Positions 9,034-31,041 of a DNA stretch of 64,000 bases are shown piece after piece (the stretch's first letter is position 1; the number at the start of each line of letters is the position of its first letter). The position numbers were made by a program, and so were the translations under genes. The notes beneath the pieces are model-generated. The model was given only the letters and a program-made list of their open reading frames with translations. It ran no database searches and had not been told where the DNA came from. Source of the stretch: Candidatus Hydrogenedentales bacterium (GTDB lineage Bacteria; Hydrogenedentota; Hydrogenedentia; Hydrogenedentales; SLHB01); contig JBHELB010000039.1 of the NCBI GenBank assembly GCA_041859045.1, positions 9,958-73,957 on the forward strand. Reading direction: 5' to 3'.

Positions 9034-9340
9034 GATGGAAATATCCGATTGTTCTAGGCCCGGCGCAGGCGGCTGGGACTTCTGTTTTCGTTAATGATTC
9101 ACTTTAGACTATGAGGGATATGCGCATCCAGGCAGTTTCTTGACTCGCCGCGCCGGTTGGGTCAAGATGTGGCGGGTGCCTTGCCGGATATCCGGGGGCG
9201 GCGGCCAATGGCGGGCGTGTACATGCGAGACCTGTCCACGTGGCCGGGGTAGAGGCTGGTTTCATGTCGGAGGTGTTCGCGTGAGGTCTGTGCGCGGGGG
9301 CGTGTGGACACAGCGCGCGGCCTAGACGGGAGAGGAAGCG

Positions 9341-10135: not shown

Positions 10136-10147
10136 TCAGCGGCGACG

Positions 10148-10936: not shown

Positions 10937-10980
10937 CCTGTCGTTCACGTTCGTTTCGCGACCGCCCGAAAGGAACACCC

Positions 10981-12228: not shown

Positions 12229-12254
12229 CCGCGCGGCGATGGGAATCTAACGGC

Positions 12255-14114: not shown

Positions 14115-14171
14115 GCCGAACCCGGGCGCGTGCTACACTGTTGTGCGTCGTTACTCAGGAGGAAATGCGCG

Positions 14172-15125: not shown

Positions 15126-15180
15126 TGAGAGTGGACGGGCTGCGGCGCTTTACTAGGCGCCTGAGAGGAGGAATGGGTTC

Positions 15181-16308: not shown

Positions 16309-16325
16309 GGGCTACAATCACTCCG

Positions 16326-17027
16326 ATGGACAGCGGCGTACTTATCATCATGCCGGCGTACAACGAGGGGGCCCGGATTGCCGAAGTGGTCAAGGGGGTC
16401 CGCGCGGCGGCTCCGCATGCCGTGTTGGTGATCGACGACGGTTCGAGCGACGACACGGCGGAGCAGGCGCGCGGGGCGGGAGCGGTGGTGGTCTCGCTGC
16501 CGTTCAATATGGGCTATGGCGTGTCGTTGCAGACCGGCTATAAGTACGCGGCGGAGCATGGCTGCGACTATCTTGTGCAGCTCGATGCGGACGGCCAGCA
16601 CGATCCGGCGGGGATTGCGGTGCTGCTCGAGCGCGTACGCGAAGGGCGCTGCGATGTGTGTATCGGGTCGCGGTTTCTCGAGGGTCAACCGTACTCCATT
16701 CCTTTTGCACGGCGAATCGGGATGATCCTATTCCGGCGTATTGCGTCGTTTCTCATCGGCGCGACGATCACCGATCCCACAAGCGGATTCCAGGCGATGA
16801 ACCGGCGCGTCATCGAGTTTTTCTGCCGCGACCATTACCCCGTGGACTATCCCGACACTGACGTTATTGTGGCGTTGCATCATCACGGCTTTCGTGTGGC
16901 CGAGGCGCCGGTGGTCATGCATGCGAATCCCACGGGAAAATCGATCCATGCGGGATTACGGCCCGTGTATTATCTATTCAAGATGGCGCTGGCCATCCCG
17001 ATGAACCTGCTGCGCAAGGAGGGCTGA
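16326..17027 (+). CDS. family 2 glycosyltransferase (dolichyl-phosphate mannosyltransferase-like)
   Basis: Start at MDSGVLIIMPAYNEG (internal Met of ORF 16161); GT2 motifs PAYNE, DDGSSD, DAD. Confidence 0.8.
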   Translation: MDSGVLIIMPAYNEGARIAEVVKGVRAAAPHAVLVIDDGSSDDTAEQARGAGAVVVSLPFNMGYGVSLQTGYKYAAEHGCDYLVQLDADGQHDPAGIAVLLERVREGRCDVCIGSRFLEGQPYSIPFARRIGMILFRRIASFLIGATITDPTSGFQAMNRRVIEFFCRDHYPVDYPDTDVIVALHHHGFRVAEAPVVMHANPTGKSIHAGLRPVYYLFKMALAIPMNLLRKEG

Positions 17028-17030
17028 GGC

Positions 17031-17390
17031 ATGGACGTTCGCCAGAAGATACTGGCCGCGGTGTGTGGCATCGGGCTGTTGCTTGTGATTCTCGAACTGG
17101 TGCGCCGTCGCAAGTTGCGCGAGGACTACGCCTGGATGTGGTTGCTGGCGGGCGTGGTGATCGCGGTGGTCGGGCTCAACTACAACCTGCTGCTGTGGGT
17201 CACCCGGTTCATCGGCGCGGGATTTACGTCATCGACACTGTTTTTCTTTGGACTGTTCTTTCTGCTCGCGCTGTGTCTGCAATTCAGCGTGAAAATCTCC
17301 AAGCTCGAAACCCAAGTCAAGAACCTGACCCAGCGCCTCGCCTTGCAGGACTCCCGCATGCCCCGCGCGGACGACGATAAGCGCGGGTAA
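17031..17390 (+). CDS. DUF2304 family small membrane protein
   Basis: Small 3-TM protein immediately after the GT2 gene, as typical for DUF2304. Confidence 0.55.
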   Translation: MDVRQKILAAVCGIGLLLVILELVRRRKLREDYAWMWLLAGVVIAVVGLNYNLLLWVTRFIGAGFTSSTLFFFGLFFLLALCLQFSVKISKLETQVKNLTQRLALQDSRMPRADDDKRG

Positions 17391-17393
17391 CGC

Positions 17394-18224
17394 ATGTGGG
17401 TCACGGCGATACTACTGGCGTTTGCTGCGGCGGACGCCGCGCCACGTTTTGAGCCGATAGAAACGATCGCCGAGGGGTTTCGTGTGGCCGAGGGGCCGGT
17501 CTGGCGCGAAGGAGTGGGCCTGCTGTACTCCGATGTCCTGGACAATACCATTTACCGTGCGCCGCGCGAGGTCTATCGCCAGCCCAGTCAGGAGACCAAT
17601 GGACTGGCGTTCGATCGCGAGGGACGGCTCGTTGCCTGCGAACACGCCGCGCGCCGCGTGACGCGCACGGAGAACAACGGCGCACAGACAGTGATTGCGG
17701 AACAGTATCAGGGGAAACGCTTCAACAGTCCCAACGACGTGGCGATCCGTTCGGACGGACTCATTTACTTCACAGACCCACCGTATGGCGTCGCTCCTGC
17801 CGATAGGGAGCTTTCTTTTTCGGGGGTGTATGCGGTGCGGCCCGGAGAGCCTGCGCGGCTCGTGGCGCGGCGCGGGTTCACACACCCCAACGGGGTGACC
17901 CTGAGCCCGGACGAGCGTTATGCGTATGTTAGCGACTCCGAACAAGGATTTGTGCGGCGCTACCGTGTGAAAGCGGATGGCGCGTTGACGCGCGGACGCA
18001 CGTTCTGCCGCGTTCCGACGCCGGACGGGATGAAGACAGACCCTGCCGGTCGGTTGTGGATTGCGGCGCGGGACGGCGTGCGCGTGTACAGCCCAGGCGG
18101 GGCGCTGCTCACGACGCTACGCGTGCCCGGTCAGCCCACGAACTGCGTGCTTGGAGGCGCGAACGGGCGTACGCTTTACGTCACCACGTTCACCGCGGTC
18201 TACCGTGTGGAATGGACGGATTAG
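17394..18224 (+). CDS. SMP-30/gluconolactonase/LRE family protein
   Basis: Six-bladed propeller family motifs (EGPVW, NGLAFD, FNSPNDV, TDP, NGV). Confidence 0.7.
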   Translation: MWVTAILLAFAAADAAPRFEPIETIAEGFRVAEGPVWREGVGLLYSDVLDNTIYRAPREVYRQPSQETNGLAFDREGRLVACEHAARRVTRTENNGAQTVIAEQYQGKRFNSPNDVAIRSDGLIYFTDPPYGVAPADRELSFSGVYAVRPGEPARLVARRGFTHPNGVTLSPDERYAYVSDSEQGFVRRYRVKADGALTRGRTFCRVPTPDGMKTDPAGRLWIAARDGVRVYSPGGALLTTLRVPGQPTNCVLGGANGRTLYVTTFTAVYRVEWTD

Positions 18225-18835
18225 GCGTCGAGGAATCCTGCCCTGCGCCGGAGTTCGGTCATGTCGAACGCGGGGCCGGGGTCGATCTTGCGGCCGGGGG
18301 CGATGTCGCGGTGGCCGACGATCTCCGTGAGCGGGTACGCATCGCGCAACGCCTGGCAAACCGCAGCGCAGGAGTCGAATTGCGCCGCAGGAAACGCTTC
18401 CCACCAGGATTGGGAACCGCTGGGGTGCGTGGTACAGAGGAGTCCGCGTTCGCGAGGCAATTCGACGCCGGTTGACGTAATCAAATTCCCTGAGGATAGC
18501 GGCAGGCACGGCCCGTAGTTGGCGAGTTCGATGCCGATGCTAAAGTGGTTGAGGTCGGTGCGTCCTTTCCACGCGCTGCGCCCGGCGTGAAACGCACGAC
18601 GGTTGAACGGCACAAGCTGCGTGACGGCGCCGTCGCGATCGATGACCAAATGCGCGGACAAATAGTTCTCGTCCTTCGCGCACAGCCACTCGATGCTGCC
18701 TCGGGCCGAGCCGCCGCCGGTGTAGTGAATCACGATGAGGTCCGGCGCGATCTCGCCGCCGTGGTCGGGACTCGGAACAAAACGCACGTCAACTAACCGA
18801 TGCGTTTGCCGATCTACTGCTGAAAGGGTTGTCAT
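18221..18835 (-). CDS. N-acetylmuramoyl-L-alanine amidase (amidase_2, AmpD-like)
   Basis: IVIHYTGG and HAGRSAWKGRTDLNHFSIGIELANYG motifs; start at MTTLSAV. Confidence 0.7.
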   Translation of the reverse strand: MTTLSAVDRQTHRLVDVRFVPSPDHGGEIAPDLIVIHYTGGGSARGSIEWLCAKDENYLSAHLVIDRDGAVTQLVPFNRRAFHAGRSAWKGRTDLNHFSIGIELANYGPCLPLSSGNLITSTGVELPRERGLLCTTHPSGSQSWWEAFPAAQFDSCAAVCQALRDAYPLTEIVGHRDIAPGRKIDPGPAFDMTELRRRAGFLDA

Positions 18836-18910
18836 TTTCTGCTCTCCGCCGCTGCCCATCGTCTCTATACGAGAGACCGGCGCGTTGCAGCGGAGGCGTA
18901 GCGGAAGGCG

Positions 18911-19345
18911 CTACGAGATTGTGCGGGCGATGGTGCCGAGGTAATCGACGAACATGGCGAATTCCATGTTCTGACTAAACGTCTCGGCGAGTTGAAGGGC
19001 GACGAGGCTGCGGCTGTCTTCCAGGCTTCTGACGCGGATGACGCGGGCATCGCCCGTGAAGGATTCGGGGAGGAAGAGGTCCGACGGGCATGGGCCCGTC
19101 GGGAGAATCAGCGAGACAACCATGCCGGGGGTGAGACGATGTTTGGTGAGTGCCCAAATGCCAGTGGTGGAAATGTCCTGGACGATGGCCGGGCCGATGA
19201 GGTGTTGACGCGTGCCGGGGATTTCCACGGAAAGCGTCGCCTTGAGTAAGAAGCGGTGGCGCTTGGCACGGCGTCGCTCATGATTCCGCTCGAAGGGATC
19301 ATCCCATGCGGCATCGACGTCGTATCTACGCAGTGCGGTACTCAT
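18911..19345 (-). CDS. PilZ domain protein
   Basis: RRxxR and D-I-S-T-T-G c-di-GMP binding motifs. Confidence 0.7.
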   Translation of the reverse strand: MSTALRRYDVDAAWDDPFERNHERRRAKRHRFLLKATLSVEIPGTRQHLIGPAIVQDISTTGIWALTKHRLTPGMVVSLILPTGPCPSDLFLPESFTGDARVIRVRSLEDSRSLVALQLAETFSQNMEFAMFVDYLGTIARTIS

Positions 19346-19621
19346 CGTTTATGTGCCTGTGGACGGCACCCCCTGATTGTGAGGTCCCCAGGATCTCATT
19401 CATCCTTGGCATATAATACCAGACTACGCGGTATGTTTCAACAGAAATTTCTGCTTGCTCACTTTTAGTCTAATTATGGTCGTTTGGGTTTTGGTGGATG
19501 GTCCGGTTTCTGGGGGATTGTATTCCTGGATGAGCGGAGCGGCGCGTTGCGGTGACGGGGGAGAGGTGCTAGACTTTTTCGTGGCGGAGTGTCCCTGGAC
19601 TACGAAGGAAGGAGGCCTGGC

Positions 19622-20710
19622 ATGGCGGATCTCGACAAGTACCTGAAAATGATGGTCGATTTTGGGGCGTCGGACCTTCATTTTTGTACTGGGTGTAAAC
19701 CGATTTTCCGGAAGGATGGAAGCCTGACGGCGCTTCGGAACGAGGAAGTGCTGGATAGCGTGACGGCAAAACGAATGATCTATGAGATCACGCCTGCGGC
19801 GAATGAGAAGGAGTTTAATGAGGTCTGGGACTCGGATTTTGCATACGAGTTAGAGGGGGTGGGACGTTTTCGCTGCAACGCGTTCATGGACCACAAGGGG
19901 ATGGGGGCGGTGTTTCGCCTGATTCCGACCGACGTGTTGACGTGCGAGCAGCTCGGCTTGCCCGACGCGGTGAAGAAGTTTTGCACGTTGAACAAGGGGC
20001 TGGTGTTGGTGACGGGGCCGACGGGCAGCGGGAAGTCGACGACGCTGGCAGCGTTGCTGGACCAGATCAACGCGACGCGAAGCGACCACATCATCACGAT
20101 CGAGGATCCGATCGAGTTTGTGCATAAGAACAAGCGGTGTCTGGTGAATCAGCGCGAGGTGCACCGGCACACGAAGAGCTTTCGTGCGGCGCTGCGTGCG
20201 GCGCTACGTGAGGATCCGGACATCGTGCTGGTGGGCGAGATGCGCGACCTGGAGACGACGCATATTGCGATTGAGACGGCGGAAACGGGGCACCTGGTGT
20301 TTGGGACGTTGCACACGACCACGGCGATCTCGACGGTGGACCGCTTGGTGGATCAGTTCCCGCCGGAACAGCAGACCCAGATTCGCGTGATGTTGGCGTC
20401 GTCGTTGAAGGGCGTGGTGGCGCAGAATCTGTTGAAGAAAAAAGGCGGCGGGCGCGTGGGGGCGCTCGAAGTGTTGGTGGTGAATCAGGCAGTATCGGCG
20501 CTGATTCGCGACGGGAAGACGAGCCAGATCATGAGCATCATGCAGACCGCGAAGCGGGAAGGCATGACGCTGTTGAACGAAGAGTTGACGCGCTTCGTGA
20601 AAGAGGACGTGGTGGAGGCGGAAGAGGCATGGCGCAAGGCAGTGGATAAAGAAGATCTGCTGAAGCATTTTGAGTCGGCGGGGATTTCGTTCAAGGCGCC
20701 TGCGGAGTAA
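19622..20710 (+). CDS. pilT: type IV pilus twitching motility ATPase PilT
   Basis: Walker A GPTGSGKST; PilT family-wide conservation; start MADLDKYLKMM. Confidence 0.9.
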   Translation: MADLDKYLKMMVDFGASDLHFCTGCKPIFRKDGSLTALRNEEVLDSVTAKRMIYEITPAANEKEFNEVWDSDFAYELEGVGRFRCNAFMDHKGMGAVFRLIPTDVLTCEQLGLPDAVKKFCTLNKGLVLVTGPTGSGKSTTLAALLDQINATRSDHIITIEDPIEFVHKNKRCLVNQREVHRHTKSFRAALRAALREDPDIVLVGEMRDLETTHIAIETAETGHLVFGTLHTTTAISTVDRLVDQFPPEQQTQIRVMLASSLKGVVAQNLLKKKGGGRVGALEVLVVNQAVSALIRDGKTSQIMSIMQTAKREGMTLLNEELTRFVKEDVVEAEEAWRKAVDKEDLLKHFESAGISFKAPAE

Positions 20711-20763
20711 GGGGGAAGAACACGGACTGACACGGAGAGAGATAGAGAGAGACGAGGGTGATG

Positions 20764-20798
20764 CGCCCGGCACAGATGCCGGGCGCATTTGTTTTTTG
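20764..20798 (+). terminator. rho-independent terminator (9-bp stem gcgcccggc / gccgggcgc followed by T-run)
   Basis: Perfect inverted repeat with 6-nt loop followed by atttgttttttgg, 54 nt after the pilT stop. Confidence 0.8.
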
Positions 20799-20859
20799 GG
20801 TCAGCGCGCTGCAACGCGGTGGGCGGGTTGATGAATGGAGTCAACAGCGAGGTGAGGCG

Positions 20860-22110
20860 ATGGTGAACTGGCTGGGCTGGTGGAAGCGAGGCGCGGGGGC
20901 GCGTGTGGAGCAGAGGTCGCCGGGCGAACGATTTGGGACGGTGTCGTTGACGGAGGACATGAGGGGCTTGATGCGGGCGGGGGAATCCTTTGTTCGGCTT
21001 CCGAGCGAGACGCCGTTCGCGATGCTCGAAGTGTACCGGTTTTTGCGCGATGCGATTCCGGATGTTAGCGACGCGGTGTGGACGTGGAAGCGCTTGTGTC
21101 AGACCGGCTACGACGTGGAGATTTTAGAGGCGTCGTCGGAGATGGCGCGCGCTCGGGCGGAGCGCCTGCTGAAGGCCCTGGACCGGCGGGTGAATAGCGG
21201 GGACCGCGGGATGGACGGTCTGCTGGACGTGTTTTATGCGTCGCTGTTTACGTATGGCGCGGCGGCGTTGGAGATTGTGCTGTCGCCGAGCCGGGAGTCG
21301 ATTGCGGACGTGGTGCCGGTGGACGTTTGGACGGTGCGGTTCAAGCGTGAACGTGGGCAGTTGCAGCCGTATCAGGTGATCGATGGGGAAGAGATTCGGT
21401 TGCCCCGCGAGCGGTTCGTGTATGTGGGGTTGGACCGCGACGGGACAAATCCTTATGGGCGCTCGATGCTTCGCTCAATCCCGTTTGTGGTGAAGATTCA
21501 GCAGCGGCTGATCGAAGACATGGCGAAGGCGACGCACAACGCGGGGTGGGCGAAGCTGCACGTGAAGTATTCGCCGGAGTCGCGCGAGCGCGGGGAGTCG
21601 GTGGAGGCATATGGGCAGCGGATCGCGGGGAACTTTGAGGCGCTGCGCACGCGGCTGAGCGGGTTGGAGGCGGATCAGAATCTGGTGACGTACGACAACG
21701 TGGACGTGTCGTTGATCCGGGGGGATTCGCAGAGCCGGATTTTCTACGACAACCTGAAGGCGATTGAGGAGCAGGTGATCACGGGGATGCACTTGATGCC
21801 GATCCTGATGGGCCGGAATTACGGGACGACGGAAACGTATGGAACGGCGCAGTTCGAGATCGTGAATCGTCAGGTGGAGGCGGTGAACCGCAGCGTGAAG
21901 CGGATTTTGGAGCGCCTCTACAACTTCGAGCTGGCGCTGATGTGGGGCGAGGCGCGGGCGCGCGTGCGGATGCGGACGAATCGGACGGTGGATGTGCTGA
22001 AAGAGGCGACGGCGCGTGGAAAAGAGATTGCGAATGTGTTGGCGCTGCGCGACGCGGGTCTGATGGATGCGGCGGGGACTGCGGAGATGCTGGGAATTGG
22101 CGGGAACTAG
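20860..22110 (+). CDS. phage portal protein-like (HK97-family-like)
   Basis: Start MVNWLGWW after the terminator (RBS gaggtgagg). Motifs resembling portal family consensus: G..L..FYASL..G.AALEI, NPYGRSML, C-terminal IEEQVITGMHLMPILMG. Confidence 0.6.
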   Translation: MVNWLGWWKRGAGARVEQRSPGERFGTVSLTEDMRGLMRAGESFVRLPSETPFAMLEVYRFLRDAIPDVSDAVWTWKRLCQTGYDVEILEASSEMARARAERLLKALDRRVNSGDRGMDGLLDVFYASLFTYGAAALEIVLSPSRESIADVVPVDVWTVRFKRERGQLQPYQVIDGEEIRLPRERFVYVGLDRDGTNPYGRSMLRSIPFVVKIQQRLIEDMAKATHNAGWAKLHVKYSPESRERGESVEAYGQRIAGNFEALRTRLSGLEADQNLVTYDNVDVSLIRGDSQSRIFYDNLKAIEEQVITGMHLMPILMGRNYGTTETYGTAQFEIVNRQVEAVNRSVKRILERLYNFELALMWGEARARVRMRTNRTVDVLKEATARGKEIANVLALRDAGLMDAAGTAEMLGIGGN

Positions 22111-22136
22111 CGAGGAAATGCGGGGAGGACGGCGTG

Positions 22137-22826
22137 ATGGGGTTGGAACCATTTGTATTTCGTCATTGGGGCGCGGTGATGTCGCGCGAGACGCCGGAGA
22201 ACGCGGAGGCGGACGTTGCGGCGGTGAACCAGTTCGCGTTGCGTCCGTTGGCGCGGGAGGAATTCGCGGCGTTTCGACTGGACCTCTGCAATAACCAGGT
22301 GGACCGCCATTTCAGCCGGTTCCCCGAGGAAGAGCTGACGCGAATCACGGAGATGACGCCGGGACGTCCGTTGATGGAGCGGCATGACCTGCGCGGATCG
22401 TTGCCGCGGGGAACGTTTTTTCGGGCGCAGGTGCACCGGGATAGCGAACGCGTGTCGGTGCGGCCGGATGTGTATGTGCTACGCACGCGGGAGAACGAAG
22501 ATTTCATTTTGAACATCGAGGGGGGCGTGTACCGCGAGACGTCGATCGGGTTCTCATTTCAAACGCCGGAGTGCTCGGTGTGCGGGAAGGATTTGCGCAC
22601 CTGTGATCACGTGCCGGGGCGGAGTTACGGGGATGCCTTGTGTCACTACGTGATGCGCGGGGTGCTGGAGGTCATCGAAGGGTCGGTGGTGCCTGCGGGA
22701 TCGCAGGGGACGACGTTTGTGTCGCAGACGCGGGGACTTCCGCTGGCGGAGGCGCTCGACGTGGCGCGGCGGGCGTACCACGCGCCGATCGTGTTGCGGC
22801 CAGGCCGTGCGTGGTCGGAGGAGTAG
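22137..22826 (+). CDS. hypothetical protein of phage-head cluster (Cys/His motif CSVCG...CDH)
   Basis: 229 aa, RBS ggggagg. Sits where a prohead protease or scaffold is expected, but no S78/U35 or ClpP motifs recognised. Confidence 0.5.
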   Translation: MGLEPFVFRHWGAVMSRETPENAEADVAAVNQFALRPLAREEFAAFRLDLCNNQVDRHFSRFPEEELTRITEMTPGRPLMERHDLRGSLPRGTFFRAQVHRDSERVSVRPDVYVLRTRENEDFILNIEGGVYRETSIGFSFQTPECSVCGKDLRTCDHVPGRSYGDALCHYVMRGVLEVIEGSVVPAGSQGTTFVSQTRGLPLAEALDVARRAYHAPIVLRPGRAWSEE

Positions 22827-22828
22827 AG

Positions 22829-23053
22829 GTGAAAACGGCAAGAGGTACTGACGAGCGAGGACCGGAGCGGGAGACTTGCGCGTATCACTTGGCGCACGAG
22901 GCGGAGTTCCGGGCGCTCTCGCGAGGATTGGATGAAGTGAAGGGACGCGTGCACGGCATCGAGACCAAGGTGGAGCGGGGCGTGCTGTTGCTGGTGGCGA
23001 ATCTGGTGGGTGTGGTGATGACGCTGGTGCAGCAGTTGCTGCGTTCGATGTGA
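22829..23053 (+). CDS. small hypothetical protein with C-terminal hydrophobic helix
   Basis: GTG start 3 nt after the previous stop; 74 aa; C-terminal LLLVANLVGVVMTLVQQLL. Confidence 0.4.
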   Translation: MKTARGTDERGPERETCAYHLAHEAEFRALSRGLDEVKGRVHGIETKVERGVLLLVANLVGVVMTLVQQLLRSM

Positions 23054-23062
23054 GGGGAAGAC

Positions 23063-23761
23063 ATGTACGGGAGAGTCTTTATTGAAGAGCGGGCCGGGAA
23101 CCCGGACGCGCTGGGCGAAGAGTGGGACGGGCGGTTCGTCGTGCATCGTCACCGTGATGCGGAGGGGCCGCATGTCGATTTGCGTCTGGAACAGGACGGG
23201 TTTCTGGCGGGCTGGCGGATCGCCGGGGAATTCGAGAGCGGTGCATGGGCGGAAGAGAAGGCGGCGCATCCCGTGCACTGGCTGGACCGCGACGGAGACG
23301 CGGTACGTGAGGACGCTGGGGTGTATCGCTGGATCGAGCGGGGGCCGCTGCGGCGCGTGGTGTGTCTGAAGGGCGAGCACGGCGTGCGCTGGTTGCGTGT
23401 GGAGGCGCATGAGGGGCTTCCGGCGGGCGTGGCGTGCGCGGTGCGGTGCGCGTTGGACGAAGCGGAACTGGGGCCGGAGTCGGCGCTGAGCCTGGTGAAG
23501 GATGGTCTGGTGGCGCGGAAGAGGGCGACGGCGCGGTTGCTGGGGTTGGGGCGCGAGCTGGACGGCGACGCGTTTGATGTGGAGGCCTGGCGGCGTGCGT
23601 TGGCGGGGCTCTCGCTGGAGGAGGTGCAGTCGCACCTGCGCGCGTACGAGGTGCGCTTTGACGCGAAATATCCGCCGCTTCCGGTATCGCGTCCGGAACG
23701 GCTGGACGCGGGAGCGTCAGTGCGGGGGGATGCACTGGCGATCGCGCGTGAGTCGATGTAG
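23063..23761 (+). CDS. LigD-type 3-prime-phosphoesterase (PE) domain-like protein
   Basis: N-terminal FVVHRHRDAEGPHVDLRLEQDGFLAGWRI matches the LigD PE signature FVxQxHxAxxLHYDxRLE..G.L.SWA (both His, Asp and Arg conserved). Confidence 0.5.
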   Translation: MYGRVFIEERAGNPDALGEEWDGRFVVHRHRDAEGPHVDLRLEQDGFLAGWRIAGEFESGAWAEEKAAHPVHWLDRDGDAVREDAGVYRWIERGPLRRVVCLKGEHGVRWLRVEAHEGLPAGVACAVRCALDEAELGPESALSLVKDGLVARKRATARLLGLGRELDGDAFDVEAWRRALAGLSLEEVQSHLRAYEVRFDAKYPPLPVSRPERLDAGASVRGDALAIARESM

Positions 23762-23793
23762 CGGCGAAAGAACGAAGAGAAAGGGAGACGGCT

Positions 23794-24174
23794 ATGGCGT
23801 TTGGAGATTTGGGGGGCGCGGTGACGGAACTGGTGATCACGTGTCAGACGAAGGCAAGCGGTGCGGTGAGCATTGCGCGCGGAGACGCGGTGAAGCTGGC
23901 GGGTCCGTACACGGTGGACAACGCGACGAGCGCGGAAGACGTGGTTTTTGGCGAAGCGTTGGCACCGGCGACGACGAACGGGGCGGCGATCCCTGTGAAG
24001 GTGCGCGGGATTTCGGTTCTTGCGTACACGGGAGATGCGCCGGTGGTGAATGGCGTTGTGGGGGTGTTGGCGTCGGCGACGGCGGGGAAGGTGAAGGCCC
24101 CGGCGACGGGCAACGGCGTGGGCAGGAATGTGAAGGTGGACACGGCGGCGGGGTTGGTGCACGTGTTGCTGTAG
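23794..24174 (+). CDS. small Gly/Ala/Val-rich phage head protein (DUF2190-like, decoration/cement candidate)
   Basis: 126 aa, low-complexity G/A/V-rich, immediately upstream of the capsid-like gene. Confidence 0.4.
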   Translation: MAFGDLGGAVTELVITCQTKASGAVSIARGDAVKLAGPYTVDNATSAEDVVFGEALAPATTNGAAIPVKVRGISVLAYTGDAPVVNGVVGVLASATAGKVKAPATGNGVGRNVKVDTAAGLVHVLL

Positions 24175-24198
24175 ACGGTTTGGGGAGAGGAAACGACG

Positions 24199-25248
24199 AT
24201 GGGGTATCGAGACGATATGGTGAAGGAGCGAGTGGCGTTTTTGTCGCGCGGCGCGGACGGGCTGCGTCAGGTGCGCGGGCGTGAGTTGTTTGAGACGTTG
24301 CATGGGTTGGGGCTGTCGTACGGTCAGTATTTCCGTGCGATGGGAACGAACCTGCAGGACTACTGCGCGCAGGAGTTTGGCGTGGACGTGAGCCGGATCA
24401 CGGTGGACCGGTTCTTTCAGTCGGATCCGAACGCGAAGTGGCTGTTTCCGGACATGGTGCGCGAGGCGGTCATTGCGGGAATGAAGCGCAAGCCGGTGTA
24501 CCGCGATCTGATCATCCGCGACGAGCCGGTAGTGGGTACGGCGTACGACGTGCCGTACGTTCAGGAGTCGGCGGACGACGAGGAGTTGCGCGGCGTTGCG
24601 GAAGGCGCGGCGATTCCGGAGTCGGAAATTCGCTACGGCAGCCGAATTGTACGTCTGGACAAGAAAGGGCGCGGCGTGCTGGCGTCGTACGAGGCGGTGC
24701 GCCGGATGTCGGTGGACATGCTGCGCGTTCACTTGCAGCGCATGGGCGAGCGTCTGGGCCGAAACCTGGACGCGCGTTTGGCGACGGTGTTGGTGTCGGG
24801 CGATTCGTCGGGCGCGAGCACGGCGGCGGTGACGCTGAACACGGCGACGGCGAATACGTGGACGTATGCGGACATTCTGTCGGGATTCATGAAGTTGACG
24901 TTGGACCATTACTTCACGCCGACGCACATGCTGGCGAATGGGGCGCTGACGGAGACGATCCTGAAACTCGACGAGTTCAAGGACTCGGCCCTTTTCGACT
25001 TCGCGAAAACGGGGAACCTGCCGACGCCGGTGGGCGTGAAGTTGGTGCCGATGCCGGAACAGCCGGAGAACAAGCTGACGATCCTGGACGCGGGCTATGC
25101 GGTGGAGAAACTGACGGAGCAAGACCTGTTGGTGGAAAGCGACAAGCTGATCAACCAGCAGTGGGAGCGCACGTACCTGACGGTCGTGACGGACTTCGCG
25201 GTGATCTATGAGAAGGCGCGCGTGGTGGTGCAGAGCGATTGGTCGTAG
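24199..25248 (+). CDS. putative phage major capsid protein
   Basis: 349 aa, position after portal and small decoration-like gene, balanced composition. No specific family motif recognised by eye. Confidence 0.45.
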   Translation: MGYRDDMVKERVAFLSRGADGLRQVRGRELFETLHGLGLSYGQYFRAMGTNLQDYCAQEFGVDVSRITVDRFFQSDPNAKWLFPDMVREAVIAGMKRKPVYRDLIIRDEPVVGTAYDVPYVQESADDEELRGVAEGAAIPESEIRYGSRIVRLDKKGRGVLASYEAVRRMSVDMLRVHLQRMGERLGRNLDARLATVLVSGDSSGASTAAVTLNTATANTWTYADILSGFMKLTLDHYFTPTHMLANGALTETILKLDEFKDSALFDFAKTGNLPTPVGVKLVPMPEQPENKLTILDAGYAVEKLTEQDLLVESDKLINQQWERTYLTVVTDFAVIYEKARVVVQSDWS

Positions 25249-25311
25249 CGGAGGGGGCGGCGAAGGGCGCGGGCGCGAAAGCGTTCGCGCCCTTTTGCAT
25301 GGAGATGAGAC

Positions 25312-25725
25312 ATGGCGAGCGTGGCGACGGAAGAAGGGGTGCGGGCTCGGTTTCAATGGAGCGAGGAAGACGTTCCCGAATCGCTGATCACGTTGGCGAT
25401 AGAGGATGCGCATAACCGGTTGGTGCGGGCGTTGACGGCGGAATCGTGGGGTGAAACGCCCGCGTCGGGCGTGGTGTTGGGCGAGACGTTGCTGGCGGGG
25501 GCGCAGGTGTACCGCTTGCTGGCGGCGCGCGAGGCGTTTGATCGGCGGGACGTGCGCGTAGGCGGTCAGGAGAGCGTCGGGATCGGGCGCTTCGAGGCGC
25601 TGAGCCGCACGGCGACGGCGCTGGAGGACGAGGCGTGGGCGGTGCTAGAGGCCTTTACGCGTATGCATGAGGGACGGGCTCCGATGAGTGCGTCGGACAC
25701 GGTTCCGGTGCTAGGAGAGGGATAA
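25312..25725 (+). CDS. putative head-tail connector (gp6-like) protein
   Basis: 137 aa; pattern VRARFQWSEEDVPESLITLAIEDAHNRLVRALT resembles gp6-like connector consensus. Confidence 0.35.
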   Translation: MASVATEEGVRARFQWSEEDVPESLITLAIEDAHNRLVRALTAESWGETPASGVVLGETLLAGAQVYRLLAAREAFDRRDVRVGGQESVGIGRFEALSRTATALEDEAWAVLEAFTRMHEGRAPMSASDTVPVLGEG

Positions 25726-25728
25726 GCC

Positions 25729-26412
25729 GTGGCGATCACGCTGGGAACGCTGTCGTTGGACGAACGATACGTGGCGGTGAAAGAGCGATTCGAAGAGGTC
25801 GGCGGACGCGACGAACGGCGCGTCGAGTTGACGGGACTTGTTTCCGATGTGTCGACGGTTGCGGGAATTGAGGCGCGACTGGAGGAGATTCTTCGGGAAG
25901 CGTCGACAAACCGCAGTTGGACCACATTTTCCGTGCGCGCGGGACGACGGCTATGGGTGCGGCGGTTGTCCTACGAACGCGAAGTGCAGCGCGGACGGAA
26001 GACGGGGGTATTCAAGCTGGTGTTGGAGGTGCGCGATTTCTTTGAGGAGTCGGACACGGAGACCGTGGTGACGTGGGAGGCTTTTTCGGGAAGCACGCGG
26101 GAATTTGCGAGTAGTGGGACTGGGGCGACGCCGATTTCCGCGGTGATTGTTCCGGAAGTGGACGTGACGTCGTGGGCGCTTAGCGACGGGACGAACACAC
26201 TGTCGGCGCAAGGCGTGTTCGCTGCGGGTGTGGCGATACGCGTGGATGGCGTGGCGCGGAAGGTGTGGGTTGGCGAGCGCGAGATCACGGGATATGTGGA
26301 AGGCACGTTTCCTGAGGTGCGCCCGGAAGGGACGACGTTGACGTATACCGACAGTGATGAAGGCGCGCATGCGGCGGCGATCACGGTTTCGTATCGCGAT
26401 CGGTGGTGGTAG
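25729..26412 (+). CDS. hypothetical protein (phage-like cluster)
   Basis: 227 aa, 3-nt gap from previous gene. Confidence 0.5.
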   Translation: MAITLGTLSLDERYVAVKERFEEVGGRDERRVELTGLVSDVSTVAGIEARLEEILREASTNRSWTTFSVRAGRRLWVRRLSYEREVQRGRKTGVFKLVLEVRDFFEESDTETVVTWEAFSGSTREFASSGTGATPISAVIVPEVDVTSWALSDGTNTLSAQGVFAAGVAIRVDGVARKVWVGEREITGYVEGTFPEVRPEGTTLTYTDSDEGAHAAAITVSYRDRWW

Positions 26413-26415
26413 TTC

Positions 26416-28155
26416 ATGCAATACCAAATCGAAGTGCTGGAGCAGGGCGGCTTTCGCAAGGCGGTATATGACGATGTGCTGTTGCTTGAGGCGGAGCGCG
26501 GGCAGGTGGACCGGGGCGTGCGCGTGGAGGGGTTGTTGCCGCCGGGACTGGCGGAATTGGGGCCGGGAGACCGGATCCGTGTGTTGGTGGACGGCGCGTT
26601 GTTTTGCGAGGCCCCCGTGCGCCGGGTGACGCCGCAATGGGGCGATCTCAAGACGCTGATTCTCGATAAATACGTGAACGCGCACGAGCTGGTGTACGTC
26701 GAGGCGTCAACTTCGGGGCCGGAGTGGAACAATCGGGTGCAGGTGGCGCTGTTGGCGTGTCCGGTGAAGACGGCGGTGCAGCAGGTGATTGACAGGGCGT
26801 TGGGTGCGGTTCACTACGGCGTGGCGCATACGGCATTTCCAGACGGCGCACAACGCGAGTATGCGAAGTTTGAAGCGCGGAAGACTGCAGGAAACGAACT
26901 GGAGACGGGCGGCATTTCAGCGGGCCAGTGGGTGGGCGCGCCACGGTTGGACGCGAGCGAGGCGTATGCCAAGGATGGCGACACGATCGCGGGGTTGAAG
27001 GTGGACGGCGCGGCGTGGCCGGACCTGCGGCTGCTCATGATTGACGCCGAGGAGACGTCGAAGAATGGTCACGCGGTGTCGCGTCACCCCGAGGTCACGG
27101 CGATGACGGCGGAAGAGTATGCGGCGTCGGCGTATGCGTGGCGCGCGCAACGATCGAAGGAGTCGCTGCAGGCGTTGATCGACGGGCACGGAATTGATGC
27201 GGTGGAACTGAACCCACATCGGAACGCGGCGGGCGCATTCGACGATCGCGTGGATGCGTATGGGCGCTACGTGGGGCTGATCTACGGCGGCGGACTTTGT
27301 TTCAACGCGGCAATGGTCGAGCAGGGAATGGCGGAAATCTATTTGTATGAAGAGGGCCGCTATCACGAGCCGTCGATGGCGTTGAAGGATTACTACTCGT
27401 ACGTGGGGCCGTCGGAAGACACGCTGGCGGTCGTGGGCGGGGGCCCGGTGAGCATGGCGGTGGACGCAGGGCTGATGGAGGCGTTGATGGCGCTGGCGTT
27501 GATGGGGGGCGGGTGCCGTTGGGGGGTGAGGGCGGACGGGACCGTGTGGTTTTGCGAAGCGAGTACGGCCGAGCACGTGGCGTTCGAGTCGCCGTCGGAG
27601 ACGGGCGTGAGCTGGGGGATGTCCGATATAGGTCTCGTGAACGAGTTGACATTCGAAGGAGGTGAGTTGGCGTTGCCGCTAACGAAGACCTATGCGCGAG
27701 AGGCCAGTGTCAGGCGCTACGGAAGCGCGTCGGGACGACTGGTGCATTACGGTCTTAACGCGGAGCAGGACGTAGACCGCTTGGCGGCGGCGTTACTCGA
27801 TGATTTGGCGTATCCATCGTTAACGGGCGACGTCGTGTTTCATCGGGGAAAGGGAGACGTGCATCCCGGCGAATTGATCGAAATCCGTGGAGCGCCGTTT
27901 CGGCGATATCACGAGGCATTGTCTGGGGAATGGGGCGGGCGCTACGCAGGGCGACTGGTGGGGGCGGTGGCGTCGGTGACGCACCGATTCACGGGGCGTC
28001 GCGTGCGGACGACCGCGACGCTGACGAGTCCGGGGCGCGCGGTTGAGAATCCCCTGCGGTTTATTGTGCGCAGTCAACCGAGCGAAGCGGAGATGTATGC
28101 GTTTCGATTGGACGACGAGGTGGTTGGATTGGACATGAGCTATCACCTGGACTGA
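26416..28155 (+). CDS. large hypothetical protein with embedded SNase/thermonuclease-like domain
   Basis: Residues about 190-360 (AKDGDTIAGLKVDG..RLLMIDAEETSKNGH...DAYGRYVGLIYGGGLCFNAAMVEQGMAEIY) align motif-for-motif with staphylococcal nuclease (DGDT, RLLxxDxPE, DKYGRxLAY..N..LV.G.A). Confidence 0.6.
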   Translation: MQYQIEVLEQGGFRKAVYDDVLLLEAERGQVDRGVRVEGLLPPGLAELGPGDRIRVLVDGALFCEAPVRRVTPQWGDLKTLILDKYVNAHELVYVEASTSGPEWNNRVQVALLACPVKTAVQQVIDRALGAVHYGVAHTAFPDGAQREYAKFEARKTAGNELETGGISAGQWVGAPRLDASEAYAKDGDTIAGLKVDGAAWPDLRLLMIDAEETSKNGHAVSRHPEVTAMTAEEYAASAYAWRAQRSKESLQALIDGHGIDAVELNPHRNAAGAFDDRVDAYGRYVGLIYGGGLCFNAAMVEQGMAEIYLYEEGRYHEPSMALKDYYSYVGPSEDTLAVVGGGPVSMAVDAGLMEALMALALMGGGCRWGVRADGTVWFCEASTAEHVAFESPSETGVSWGMSDIGLVNELTFEGGELALPLTKTYAREASVRRYGSASGRLVHYGLNAEQDVDRLAAALLDDLAYPSLTGDVVFHRGKGDVHPGELIEIRGAPFRRYHEALSGEWGGRYAGRLVGAVASVTHRFTGRRVRTTATLTSPGRAVENPLRFIVRSQPSEAEMYAFRLDDEVVGLDMSYHLD

Positions 28156-28170
28156 CGAGAAGGAGGGGGA

Positions 28171-28686
28171 ATGCGAGGCAAGGGGTATACGAAGACGGCC
28201 TGGCAGGTGCAGGAACGGCCCGTGTCGTCGTCGAAGCTGAACACGTGGGACGATCGTATCGAGCAGGCATTGGAGCGGGCGTTCTTTTACGTGGGGCAGA
28301 CGGCGGGTGATGAGAACGGCGTGTTGCGCGGCGCGACATCATTGGATTTGAAGACGACTCAGGCGTCGCCGGCGGGACGGAGTGTGGTGGTGAATGCGGG
28401 GTGCGCGTTGATTGCGCGATGTCCGTATCGCTTGGGGTCGAGTATGGCCACGGCGGAGGTAACGCCGCCCGCGACGTATCCGCGCGTGGATTTGGTGCAG
28501 GCGCGGCTGGACTCGTGGGATGTGAGCGTTCGTACGGGGACCGAAGCGGCGTCGCCGATGGCTCCAGAGGCGGAGGCGAACTGCATTGCGTTGGCGGAAC
28601 TGCATCTGCGGCCAGGAATGGTGAGCGTCAAGGATACGGACGACGGCGTGAATGGGTACATTGTGGATGTGCGGGCGTTCTTGTAG
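28171..28686 (+). CDS. hypothetical protein (phage-like cluster)
   Basis: 171 aa ORF, co-directional. Confidence 0.45.
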   Translation: MRGKGYTKTAWQVQERPVSSSKLNTWDDRIEQALERAFFYVGQTAGDENGVLRGATSLDLKTTQASPAGRSVVVNAGCALIARCPYRLGSSMATAEVTPPATYPRVDLVQARLDSWDVSVRTGTEAASPMAPEAEANCIALAELHLRPGMVSVKDTDDGVNGYIVDVRAFL

Positions 28687-28702
28687 AAGAGGAGAAGAAG
28701 CG

Positions 28703-29074
28703 ATGGATGGTAGCGTGAGTGAATGGGGCCTGACGTTGGCGACGATGGTGTTTGGGGCGCTGTGGACGGCGTTTCGATCGAGCGACGTGTTGGGGCGCGT
28801 GCGCGATGAACGGTTCCGAAAAGCGTTGAGCGCGTTGGAGGCGGGCGTGGAGCAGACGTACCGGACGTATGTGCGGGCGCTGAAGGAGTCGCGCGCGGAC
28901 GGGAAACTGACGGACGAGGAGCGACGCCAGGCGCGGTTGCTGGCGCGGGACACCGCGATGGCGTTTGGCCGTACGCAGGGCGTCGACGTGTTGCAGACGC
29001 TTGGGCGTGAGTACATCGACGTGTGGATCGCAAAATTGGTGAATGGCCTGAAGATCGGCGCGGGTTTGGCGTAG
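28703..29074 (+). CDS. small hypothetical protein with N-terminal TM helix (last gene of cluster)
   Basis: Start MDGSVSEWGLTLATMVFGALWTAF with RBS agaggagaag. Confidence 0.4.
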   Translation: MDGSVSEWGLTLATMVFGALWTAFRSSDVLGRVRDERFRKALSALEAGVEQTYRTYVRALKESRADGKLTDEERRQARLLARDTAMAFGRTQGVDVLQTLGREYIDVWIAKLVNGLKIGAGLA

Positions 29075-29081
29075 GGAATTC

Positions 29082-29128
29082 GGGGGGGATTCTTGCCGGA
29101 GGAGAATCTCCCCCAATCCTTTTCAAAG
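29082..29128 (+). terminator. hairpin (gggggggattct / agaatctccccc) with weak T tract
   Basis: Near-perfect inverted repeat 8 nt after the last cluster gene stop, followed by aatccttttc. Confidence 0.4.
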
Positions 29129-29252
29129 AGCGCACTTTCTCGTAAATGCACCCACCTTTCCTCTCGCGAAGAGTCCCACCTGCGAGTCAATACCCTTCAG
29201 ACAAGTTCACTTCTTTGCCGCTCAGAGCAGGCGTTTTCTGTCGATCGCCGGG

Positions 29253-29281
29253 TTGACAGTGCGGCCGATTTCGCCGATAAT
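29253..29281 (+). promoter_or_regulatory. sigma70-like promoter TTGACA-17-GATAAT
   Basis: Consensus -35 hexamer with exact 17-nt spacer to GATAAT; about 180-nt leader before the OMP gene. Confidence 0.55.
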
Positions 29282-29463
29282 GCGGCCGGGGGTGGGTCTT
29301 TGTTTTCGACCCAGACAGCAGTATTCGTCACTTACCCGGGCAAAAGTGCGCGGGTGAGGTGTGTCTGTGGCGCAAAACGAAGCTCATTCCGGATGGAGTT
29401 TTCATGTTATCGGGGATAGGGGACCGGTCTCTGACAAGGGGCCAAACGCGAAGGAGAAGGCAG

Positions 29464-31041
29464 ATGCGCAAGGGGCTTTTGGTGCTGGCTGTTGCGGCGA
29501 TGATGTTCTGCACGGCCGCCTCCGCCGAGCTGCAGAATGTGCAGGTTGGCGGCGAGGTTCGCATTATGGGGAACTGGATTCCGAACTGGGCGGTCGAGCC
29601 GGGGCCGTTGGAGATTCGGATTCCGGCGACGCAGTTGTTCAACCGTCCGATCGGCGACATGGTGACGCGTGGGGCGTTCAACGGCGCGGGCATCTTGAGC
29701 CCGTATGCGTGGGGCAACACGAACGACCTGCGTCTGATCGAAGAGCGCACGCGCGTGAACTTCAAGGCGGAGTTCACGGACAACGTGAGCGCGTTCATCG
29801 AGCTCGAGAGCTATGATTTTTGGGGCGAGGATTTCCGTTCGAACTACGTGACCGGCGCGGATGCGCGCGCGGCGACGGGTGATGACGTGGAAGTGTATCA
29901 GTCGTACATCGAGACGAGCGAAATGTACGGCTATCCGGTGTCGCTGCGCATTGGCCGCCAGGAATTGGCGTTCGGTAATCAGTGGCTGGTCGGGCCGAAG
30001 GACTTCGGCCCGTTCTTCCGCGGCCGTTCGTTCGATGCGATTCGCGCGACGTACGCGACGGACCTGTTCAAGGTCGACGCGTGGATGTCGAAGCTGAACG
30101 AAGGCGGCGTGGCGGAGCAGGACGGCGACGTCGATTTCTACGGCGTGTACGGCACGTACCTGGGCCTTGAGAACATCACGATCGACGCGTACTGGATGCT
30201 GGTCCGCGATGGCCGCAGCCTGAACGACACCAATCGTCTCTGGTTCGGCGAGTGGATCGAAGACGTGTTGAACCTGGATGACTACGACGTGACGAATCTC
30301 AACACGGTGGGTCTGCGCGGCGCGGGCAAAATCGACGCGTTCGATTTCGATGCGGAAGTGGCCTATCAGTTCGGCAGCGCGGATCAGGTTGGTTTCGCGT
30401 TCAAGCCGTTCACGTACGGCGACGACGGCGCGGACTACGGCGTGTGGGGCGCGAACCTGGGCGCGGGCTACACCTTCGACATGATGTGGCAGCCGCGCCT
30501 TCACCTGGGCTACACCTACTACGGCGGCGAAGACAACCGCGACATCAATTTCTGGCAGTGGCTGAATCCGTTCGACCTGCCGGAGGCGAGCGTCAGCTTC
30601 AACCGTCTGTTCACGAACGTGATGCACGGCGGTTTCCTCGATCTGCAGGGCGACTTTTCGAACGGCCACGTGTTCGAGGCCGACGTGATGGCGCACCCGA
30701 CCGAGAAGACGATGGTCATGCTGGGGCTGACCTATTTCATGGCCGACGAGACGTTCTCGTACCCGATGTTCGTGAAGATCGGCAAGTTCCGCGTGCCGGT
30801 GGCCCCGAACCTGTCCTTCTGGGATAAGGGCGGCGACAGCGACATCGGTTGGCAGCTCGACCTGGTCGGCGCGTACAACTACAGCGAAGACCTGTCGTTC
30901 ATGCTTCACTGGAGCCACATGTTTGTGGGCGACGGCCTGAGCGACGGCAACTTCAACGCCTGGAACGGCCTACTGTTCACCGGCGGCGACGGCGAAGACG
31001 ACTCCGACTACTACTGTGTCGAGACGCGTATTCGCTTCTAG
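29464..31041 (+). CDS. outer-membrane beta-barrel protein (porin-like)
   Basis: Signal peptide MRKGLLVLAVAAMMFCTAASA; alternating aromatic/Gly-rich beta-strand pattern; terminal Phe (TRIRF); RBS aaggagaagg. Confidence 0.65.
   Translation: MRKGLLVLAVAAMMFCTAASAELQNVQVGGEVRIMGNWIPNWAVEPGPLEIRIPATQLFNRPIGDMVTRGAFNGAGILSPYAWGNTNDLRLIEERTRVNFKAEFTDNVSAFIELESYDFWGEDFRSNYVTGADARAATGDDVEVYQSYIETSEMYGYPVSLRIGRQELAFGNQWLVGPKDFGPFFRGRSFDAIRATYATDLFKVDAWMSKLNEGGVAEQDGDVDFYGVYGTYLGLENITIDAYWMLVRDGRSLNDTNRLWFGEWIEDVLNLDDYDVTNLNTVGLRGAGKIDAFDFDAEVAYQFGSADQVGFAFKPFTYGDDGADYGVWGANLGAGYTFDMMWQPRLHLGYTYYGGEDNRDINFWQWLNPFDLPEASVSFNRLFTNVMHGGFLDLQGDFSNGHVFEADVMAHPTEKTMVMLGLTYFMADETFSYPMFVKIGKFRVPVAPNLSFWDKGGDSDIGWQLDLVGAYNYSEDLSFMLHWSHMFVGDGLSDGNFNAWNGLLFTGGDGEDDSDYYCVETRIRF

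Follow-up and report, generated by a model that had tools for sequence, protein, structure and literature searches.

Why would a protein encoded among phage-type structural genes of a bacterial chromosome have a nuclease built into it? The question is raised by one gene in a stretch of 64,000 nucleotides (nt; hereafter the window) from a Candidatus Hydrogenedentales bacterium (GenBank assembly GCA_041859045.1, contig JBHELB010000039.1). The gene, hub-SNase (26416..28155 of the window, + strand), starts with ATG and encodes a protein of 579 amino acids (aa). A sequence-only reading of this DNA had proposed an open reading frame (ORF) for a 579-aa phage-cluster protein with an embedded staphylococcal nuclease (SNase) domain. 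The translation is exact, the Pfam family PF00565 is matched above threshold, and the three motifs quoted in that reading are present beyond chance. The protein is almost certainly a tail-tip hub of the gp27/Mu gp44/VgrG/Tal type that carries an SNase insertion. We favour, with moderate confidence, its interpretation as the nuclease-bearing tail-tip hub of a domesticated particle resembling a gene transfer agent (GTA), with a putative Ca2+-dependent nuclease exposed on the tip.

The inserted module comprises residues ~137-342 (~206 aa; 26824..27441, + strand), as placed by the PF00565 match, the alignment to the Protein Data Bank (PDB), and a clean gap in the relatives P0144 and P0176. The SNase core lies within it at residues ~172-330, so that the domain limits of ~190-360 given earlier were roughly placed but are shifted. 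A profile search and a structure prediction had been proposed as checks on the domain, and both support it. PF00565 matches residues 204-314 with 30.6 bits against a gathering score of 21 (E = 4.9e-7), and in PHROGs the protein matches an endonuclease family. In a phmmer search of the PDB, DGDT (187-190), RLLMIDAEE (205-213), and DAYGRY (280-285) align to SNase residues 19-22, 35-43, and 83-88; the wider span of AKDGDT, RLLMIDAEE, and DAYGRY...NAAMVEQGMAEIYLY aligns to SNase residues 16-43 and 81-126. D21, R35, D40, and E43 of SNase correspond to D189, R205, D210, and E213 of the window protein, Y85 to Y282, R87 to R284, and Y113/Y115 to Y309/Y311. In the predicted structure the insert has the OB-fold barrel and helices of SNase and matches the 1SNC fold: Foldseek aligns it with 1snc, 1ii3, and 2f0w at E ~7e-6, 21-25% identity, and a template modelling (TM) score of 0.61-0.68 when normalised to the SNase chain. 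The SNase structures form a separate local match, which ranks below the hub matches described later. From the SNase alignment the predicted catalytic codons (+ strand) are those of D189 (26980-26982), R205 (27028-27030), D210 (27043-27045), E213 (27052-27054), and R284 (27265-27267).

Is this active site preserved? Conservation was scored over 65 homologues, which are ~50% identical overall. D187, G188, D189, T190, R205, D210, E212, E213, D280, G283, and Y285 are invariant in all 65. R284 is kept in 64 of the 65, position 282 is occupied by Y or F, and conservation of Y309 is 91%. The alignment of the catalytic Asp, Glu, and Arg with SNase had been named beforehand as the point on which the assignment should stand or fall; these residues do align, with the (near-)invariance just given, and the assignment survives. 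As judged by alignment, the module keeps the full predicted catalytic set of SNase: the Ca2+ ligands D189 and D210, the general base E213, R205, R284, and the nucleotide-binding tyrosines. The insert is also the best-conserved part of the protein, with column identity of 0.81-0.83 versus 0.60-0.67 in the C-terminal scaffold. The median pairwise rate of nonsynonymous substitution (dN) is 0.28 in the insert versus 0.49 in the scaffold, and the ratio of nonsynonymous to synonymous rates (omega) is 0.08-0.18 in both (unsaturated pairs, synonymous rate dS 0.2-0.6). This combination of conservation and omega is what an enzyme under selection would be predicted to look like, and the inserted SNase is likely to be a catalytically active nuclease.

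The protein that houses this nuclease can be recognized from its structure. The AlphaFold2 (AF2) monomer model, built with 65 homologues as input, has a mean per-residue confidence (pLDDT) of 87.9 and a predicted TM score (pTM) of 0.87. Its top 43 Foldseek matches in the PDB are all baseplate hub or spike-base proteins (probability 1.0, E 4.5e-12 to 1e-6). They include the hubs of the Anabaena and Algoriphagus contractile injection systems (CIS), diffocin, the 43-kDa tail proteins of Neisseria and MuSo2, Mu gp44, T4 gp27, VgrG, T5 pb3, the Tal of phage NF5, and phage 80alpha. Among the entries are 7b5h_AJ (4.5e-12), 3d37, 1wru, and 3cdd, with the CIS/VgrG-type structures 7b5h, 7aef, 4mtk, and 8gra near the top. 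The alignments bridge both flanks of the insert (~555-580 query columns against targets of ~320 aa) and recover the four-domain hub fold, with TM scores up to 0.62 when normalised to the ~320-aa hubs. Normalised to the query the TM score is only ~0.36 because of the insert. The viral structure library BFVD concurs and returns proteins named '43 kDa tail protein', 'phage protein D', 'Mu gpP', and 'minor tail protein', as well as tail hubs. The flanks, which had been described as being of unknown function, are thus both halves of the gp27/gp44/VgrG/Tal hub fold (Foldseek, BFVD). Therefore the SNase is an insertion and not a fusion between two unknown domains; the earlier idea of a nuclease domain fused into a structural-type protein is right as to the virion structural protein in which the domain is embedded but not as to the fusion.

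The position of the gene agrees with that of a hub. It lies directly downstream of a Dit-like gene, with 3 nt between the Dit-like stop codon and its own ATG, and the pair is syntenic in 71 loci. A virion-associated, neck, or ejection protein had been expected at this place; the product is indeed a virion structural protein, but of the tail tip and not of the neck. Membership in a hub sequence family was not found: the window protein has no Pfam or PHROG match to such families (Phage_GPD, Prophage_tail, Sipho_tail, and similar). An indirect sequence link exists, since the family profile reaches ~360-aa hubs, one of which has a sub-threshold Prophage_tail match and another a sub-threshold YQBQ-like match.

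These shorter hubs also define the boundaries of the insert. In a search of 1.84 billion representatives with the family profile, query positions 350-500 match residues ~141-293 of the ~360-aa hubs, an offset of ~210 aa. Two close relatives, P0144 (368 aa, E = 7.6e-68) and P0176 (364 aa), keep the N-terminal domain and the C-terminal '...LD..HLD' signature, with a clean gap opposite window residues ~135-343. Residues ~137-342 are regarded as an insertion because these relatives lack exactly that segment. The N-terminal part of the hub (residues 1-136; 26416..26823, + strand) aligns to the N-terminus of the insert-less P0144 and P0176 and consists of a beta-barrel domain and a helix in the AF2 model. 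The C-terminal part (residues 343-579; 27442..28152, + strand) ends in the family signature ...LD..YHLD and is the region matched by the family profile in the ~360-aa hubs (E 1e-10 to 1e-4). The gene of P0144 stands in the same order as in the window (capsid, 132 aa, 226 aa, hub), and the neighbouring capsid protein is 71% identical to that of the window. P0144 belongs to the same kind of cluster and lacks the insert; therefore the insert is lineage-specific within one element family. L080 is likewise a lineage that has no insert.

Other hubs have other modules. P0189 (622 aa) has a concanavalin-A-like lectin (Laminin_G_3) at a position comparable to that of the SNase insert, and hubs annotated with a lectin of the same type (A0A6J5PKH9 and A0A6J5NN73) are among the top structural matches in BFVD. 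By analogy, this suggests that modules for dealing with the target surface may be inserted preferentially at this site, which would be exposed. A stand-alone SNase relative, P0171, has the sub-family motifs of the insert. A sister arrangement (L078:305-4321) comprises genes of 138 aa and of 228 aa (SPP1_Dit), a phrog_16951 protein, a counterpart of the window's 171-aa protein, and a hub of 359 aa that has no SNase; host GAF and LexA genes come directly after it.

To what kind of element does the hub belong? The gene is part of a cluster of ~8.3 kb, from the portal ORF start at 20758 to the end of the last gene at 29074, in the order portal, probable protease, 232 aa, 126 aa, capsid, 137 aa, Dit-like, hub-SNase, 171 aa, and holin-like. 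One genome per GTDB species was scanned, and 72 loci were found, nearly all in Hydrogenedentota and including complete chromosomes of 5.1 Mb and 7.9 Mb. Each locus-bearing genome has one copy of the cluster. At least 288 hub-SNase homologues exist, nearly all of 578-583 aa and ~50% identical, on contigs up to 787 kb; their named sources are mostly Candidatus Hydrogenedentes, and no frameshifts or length changes occur among them. Gene order is collinear wherever the contig is long enough, with identities of ~70% for the portal, ~75% for the capsid, and ~50% for the hub. The GC content of the cluster tracks that of its flanks over a range of 0.53-0.68 (r = 0.87, n = 37). The flanks are housekeeping genes, and homologous host genes on the same side are common to 63 locus pairs (39 of 59 loci). 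The more alike the flanks of two loci are, the more alike are their hubs (r = 0.86), the hub being always at least as conserved as the flank.

A look for homologues in other phage head or neck modules had been proposed in the earlier reading. No hub relative was found in IMG/VR or, by tblastn, in GenBank phages. No close capsid relative was found in these two collections either; only matches of ~30%, on uncultured gut phage contigs, were obtained. Integrase, repressor, replication, and sheath genes were not found in the cluster, in the tested ORFs of the window, or within up to 10 kb of flank of the annotated loci, and of the other features of an intact prophage, an att site, a terminase, and a complete tail were not found in the flanks read either. 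Collinearity, shared flanks, GC tracking, omega, and absence from phage collections thus point to a chromosomally fixed, vertically inherited element under selection, and we consider it very probable that the element is inherited in this way, selected, and not a prophage. Since the structural cluster is fixed and vertically inherited in Hydrogenedentota chromosomes, we regard it as a domesticated GTA-like element. The term 'phage cluster' used in the sequence-only reading holds for the phage-type structural genes, but no phage, intact prophage, or terminase was found.

Many records of metagenome-assembled genomes that carry the cluster are labelled as Nitrospirales or Nitrospiraceae, Bathyarchaeia, or Rhodothermaeota (L007, L009, L019, L025, L027, L039-L041, L045, L051, L057, L060, L063, and others; also L016 and L037). 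For several of them these labels were rejected as a sign of horizontal spread; they are probably binning or naming artefacts because the flanks are shared (60-89% aa identity) with Hydrogenedentota-labelled loci. For other such loci no shared flank was found. The cluster tends to adjoin envelope-polysaccharide genes. In the window these are at 7612-17390 (a MatE/Wzx-like flippase, a GFO_IDH oxidoreductase, an asparagine synthase, and DUF2304), the right flanks of L004, L017, and L032 have PMT_2, Wzx, and GT2 genes, and in one deep group a host polysaccharide-biosynthesis locus is common on the right flank.

How might the nuclease act on such a particle? The SNase-fold module of ~206 aa is inserted between the N-terminal barrel and the rest of the hub. 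A hub trimer below the Dit-like ring would bring three nuclease copies to each tail tip, and the insertion site and the lectin analogy suggest that the SNase would be exposed on the assembled trimer. High concentrations of Ca2+ are a requirement of classical SNase chemistry; within the cytoplasm of the producer the enzyme would therefore be silent, becoming active outside the cell or in the periplasm of the target. With this requirement keeping it silent in the producer, no immunity protein would need to be present. Nucleic acid met by the tip would be cut, most probably DNA or RNA lying in the matrix outside the target cell, in the way that tail depolymerases act on capsule. That the substrate is extracellular or matrix nucleic acid is suggested tentatively, by this analogy and by that with the lectin inserts. 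The wider proposal of a phylum-wide, vertically inherited, phage-derived particle system not described before (with capsid, portal, and a minimal Dit-hub-fibre tip that bears an active nuclease, and with the terminase, tube, and tape measure missing from the locus) is given a little less than an even chance.

Several findings weigh against a nuclease-bearing hub on a GTA-like particle. The position of the SNase residue T41 is A, C, S, or T in the hub-SNase family, which is tolerable because that ligand is a backbone carbonyl. Two side lineages, P0126 (554 aa) and P0147 (612 aa), keep the domain without the equivalents of D21, D40, and R35, the catalytic motifs being replaced by DGRT and by VGAES or IGIAPE; some members of the family can therefore do without catalysis and still retain the domain. 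(P0147 is encoded at L077:2280-4118, where the Dit-like protein also has an fn3 domain and the gene order is shuffled.) In two loci, L017 (1-7270) and L018 (1-7376), the 126-aa gene is not preceded by genes for the portal, the 229-aa, and the 232-aa protein, and the cluster may have been split or partly replaced there. The place of this portal half is taken by unrelated genes, for a radical SAM protein, a GH67-like protein, and three uncharacterized proteins (344, 516, and 801 aa). Finally, a terminase, a tail tube, and a tape measure were not found in the cluster, in the tested terminase-sized ORFs of the window, or within up to 10 kb of flank of the annotated loci.

The terminase could be encoded elsewhere in the genome. 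On one distant phage contig (L082; capsid ~28% identical), TerL is immediately upstream of the portal, and in this cluster that slot is filled with unrelated genes of the host, which are PilT in the window and NrdD or ABC-F at other loci. The PilT/T2SSE-like ATPase (19589-20710) was rejected as a packaging motor. It is syntenic in 2 of 75 loci, where it lies 8 kb downstream, and a strong terminator-like hairpin (20760..20789, + strand; 13-bp stem with 9 GC pairs and a T-run) separates it from the cluster. A PilZ-domain gene (18911-19345, - strand) is also upstream of the portal; it is not part of the element and not syntenic elsewhere. An Amidase_2 gene (18221-18859, - strand) was rejected as the endolysin of the element, being syntenic in no other locus. 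Many genomes have a variable insertion of ~1.6-2 kb between the 229-aa and 232-aa genes, with a gene of ~547 aa (L002:4899-6542; also L006, L013, L019, L031, L044, L053, and L054). The window lacks this gene; its product, which matches no Pfam or PHROG family, was rejected as a divergent terminase. The ~605- and ~550-aa genes on the right flank of L004, L017, and L032 were rejected as hidden genes of the element because they encode host proteins (PMT_2 glycosyltransferase, Wzx-type flippase, and GT2 enzymes). Ten terminase-sized ORFs elsewhere in the window are housekeeping genes or have no match. A 511-aa ORF of the window (1898-3433, - strand) has no Pfam or PHROG match and a host-like GC content at third codon positions (GC3).

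Is the domain an enzyme at all? It could be a non-catalytic adhesin or structural decoration, which binds nucleic acid or a phosphate-rich surface polymer and tethers the tip without cutting. The lectins that P0189 and BFVD hubs carry at a comparable site of insertion, the degenerate motifs of the domain retained in P0126 and P0147, and the fact that the OB-fold (oligonucleotide/oligosaccharide-binding fold) is a common binding module are all consistent with this. However, the catalytic and Ca2+-binding residues are (near-)invariant in 65 sequences that are ~50% identical, no part of the protein is more constrained than the insert, and binding alone would not require E213, R205, and R284 together, which makes a purely binding role unlikely. 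Nor is a cryptic or decaying prophage remnant, with a nuclease moron fused into a tail gene and no current function, a convincing explanation. An incomplete cluster, in which no terminase, tube, or tape measure was found and which lacks its portal half in some loci, is what a remnant might look like. With omega ~0.1, at least 288 homologues free of frameshifts and length changes, capsids 73-86% identical, orthologous positions across deep divergence, and GC ameliorated to that of the host, however, a functionless remnant is very unlikely given the selection data.

If the enzyme is active, its target may differ from the one proposed here. As a toxic effector of a killer particle similar to an evolved VgrG, the hub would enter the envelope of a competitor and the nuclease would degrade the nucleic acid of the target. 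The hub fold is homologous to VgrG and CIS spikes, which carry nuclease effectors (literature), and Ca2+ dependence would shield the producer without an immunity gene. On the other hand, the domain is internal and not a releasable C-terminal extension, the cluster has no sheath, tube, or immunity-like genes, cytoplasmic Ca2+ of the target cell would be too low for classical SNase, and a pure toxin-delivery device needs no capsid and portal; we see only a slim chance for this role. Cargo processing or DNA uptake appears improbable for reasons of geometry and compartment. Here the nuclease would trim or nick DNA in the periplasm of the recipient for competence import, or fragment DNA of the producer for packaging without a terminase. 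RcGTA relies on competence (Com) proteins. The GTA-like nature of the element, in which no terminase nuclease was found, and the sufficient Ca2+ of the periplasm favour such a role, but an insert on the periphery of the hub is badly placed for DNA in the central channel, a non-specific nuclease beside ejected cargo would be self-defeating, and the enzyme would be inactive in the cytoplasm of the producer, where packaging takes place.

The tip nuclease on a GTA-like particle can be compared with known systems. Tal-type hubs (T4 gp27, Mu gp44, SPP1 gp21, and T5 pb3) share with hub-SNase the overall fold, the gene position directly after Dit, and a hub that carries an enzymatic or binding module for the target envelope. 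While the known enzymatic modules of Tal are C-terminal peptidoglycan hydrolases, the module here is a nuclease and is inserted internally (~137-342). The window hub also differs in having no Pfam hub-family match and no tube or tape measure found alongside. Evolved VgrG, PAAR, and extracellular CIS (eCIS) spikes have a homologous hub fold with a nuclease attached to the tip of a phage-tail-like device (literature). Sheath, tube, baseplate wedge, and immunity genes, as in a type VI secretion system (T6SS) or eCIS, are not in the cluster, however. The effectors of those systems are C-terminal HNH, VRR-Nuc, or Tox-type toxins, whereas the one here is internal and of the SNase type, and the device here has a capsid and a portal. 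In comparison with secreted stand-alone SNase (thermonuclease; Nuc, YncB; PF00565), the fold, the Ca2+ ligands, and the catalytic Arg/Glu/Arg are alike, but the domain here is embedded in a virion protein; it is extended at its N-terminus by ~35 aa, and its helical segment between E43 and D83 (SNase numbering) is longer.

GTAs (RcGTA-type of Alphaproteobacteria, BaGTA, VSH-1, and Dd1) also have a structural cluster without replication, lysogeny, or regulatory genes that is embedded in host genes, fixed in the chromosome, vertically inherited across a clade, and under purifying selection, and they have a holin-like gene. They differ in that the cluster here and its flanks, read over up to 10 kb, yielded no terminase, tail tube, or tape measure, and in that the phylum is a different one. 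It is in genomic behaviour that the cluster is like a GTA. The RcGTA hub region carries a peptidase and not a nuclease. Tail-tip hubs are known with peptidoglycan hydrolases or lectins, and T6SS spikes with nuclease toxins. In the searchable literature on thermonucleases and baseplate hub or tail proteins no report of a tail hub with a built-in conserved SNase was found, and a search for Hydrogenedentes or Hydrogenedentota together with GTA, capsid, or prophage found nothing relevant. An enzyme-bearing tail hub in a domesticated phage-derived cluster is what the locus presents; what sets it apart from Tal and evolved VgrG is the class of enzyme and the internal position of the module.

The head genes of the cluster (all on the + strand) are as follows. 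The portal ORF (20758..22110) matches PF06074 Portal_Mu (2.1e-9) and phrog_3753 (1.2e-47) and is ~70% identical across loci; since its homologues have 415-422 aa, the true start is probably near 20.85 kb. The next gene (21942..22826) encodes a phrog_16951 protein (1.5e-35), probably the prohead protease, with a true start probably near 22137 because homologues have 229 aa. This protein matches the post-portal region of the phage contig L081, a maturation protease occupies its position in L082, and its homologue in L078 has a weak phrog_80 match. A conserved 232-aa protein (23063..23761) is syntenic in 51 loci and has no family match in Pfam or PHROG; it is possibly a scaffold. The 126-aa virion structural protein (23794..24174; phrog_4588, 9.3e-7) is ~70% identical across loci. 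The HK97-fold major capsid protein of 349 aa (24199..25248) matches PF25209 (4.5e-15) and phrog_3922 (2.2e-51), and its homologues have 348-349 aa and are 73-86% identical. Just 3' of the capsid gene is a terminator-like hairpin (25271..25292), a consensus match only, with a 9-bp stem followed by a T-run.

The tail genes follow, also on the + strand. A conserved 137-aa protein (25312..25725), syntenic in 67 loci and without a family match in Pfam or PHROG, is possibly a head-tail adaptor, as its position and size would suggest. The Dit-like distal tail protein of 227 aa (25729..26412) matches PF22768 SPP1_Dit (25.8 bits, cut-off 25) and phrog_33 (Dit) and is syntenic in 71 of 75 loci. Downstream of hub-SNase is a 171-aa protein (28171..28686; syntenic in 66 loci) with an N-terminal helix and a beta domain (AF2 pLDDT 84). 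It has weak Foldseek matches to the phi812 baseplate, SPP1 gp22, the HFTV1 fibre, Mtd, and TssK (E 3e-3 to 6e-2) and weak PHROG matches to virion structural proteins, and from the model it is probably a short fibre or receptor-binding 'shoulder' protein. The last gene (28652..29074; syntenic in 46 loci) encodes a small holin-like protein of ~123 aa, counted from the Met at 28703, with an N-terminal hydrophobic helix; its homologue in L002 weakly matches phrog_13712 (holin, E 0.0078). A terminator-like hairpin with a 13-bp stem (29082..29114) marks the 3' end of the cluster. Within window positions 20000-30000, GC skew is ~0.29 across the cluster and ~0.05-0.15 in the flanking chromosome, and GC content and GC3 are host-like.

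What does the cluster mean for Hydrogenedentota, an uncultured phylum? With its orthologous sites, strong conservation, and missing packaging motor, the cluster looks like a new case of virus domestication and is a candidate GTA-like system. It also offers a way to ask what a capsid, a portal, and a tail tip are capable of when neither a terminase nor a tail tube is encoded at the locus. Provided that it is active and exposed, the nuclease would be the first of its kind on a virion, a tip enzyme directed at nucleic acid. If the wider proposal of a phylum-wide particle system is true, the particle would represent a new lineage of domesticated virus-like particles, either a GTA or one that is functionally different, and its hub would be the first with a nuclease as the enzyme that faces the envelope or the matrix.

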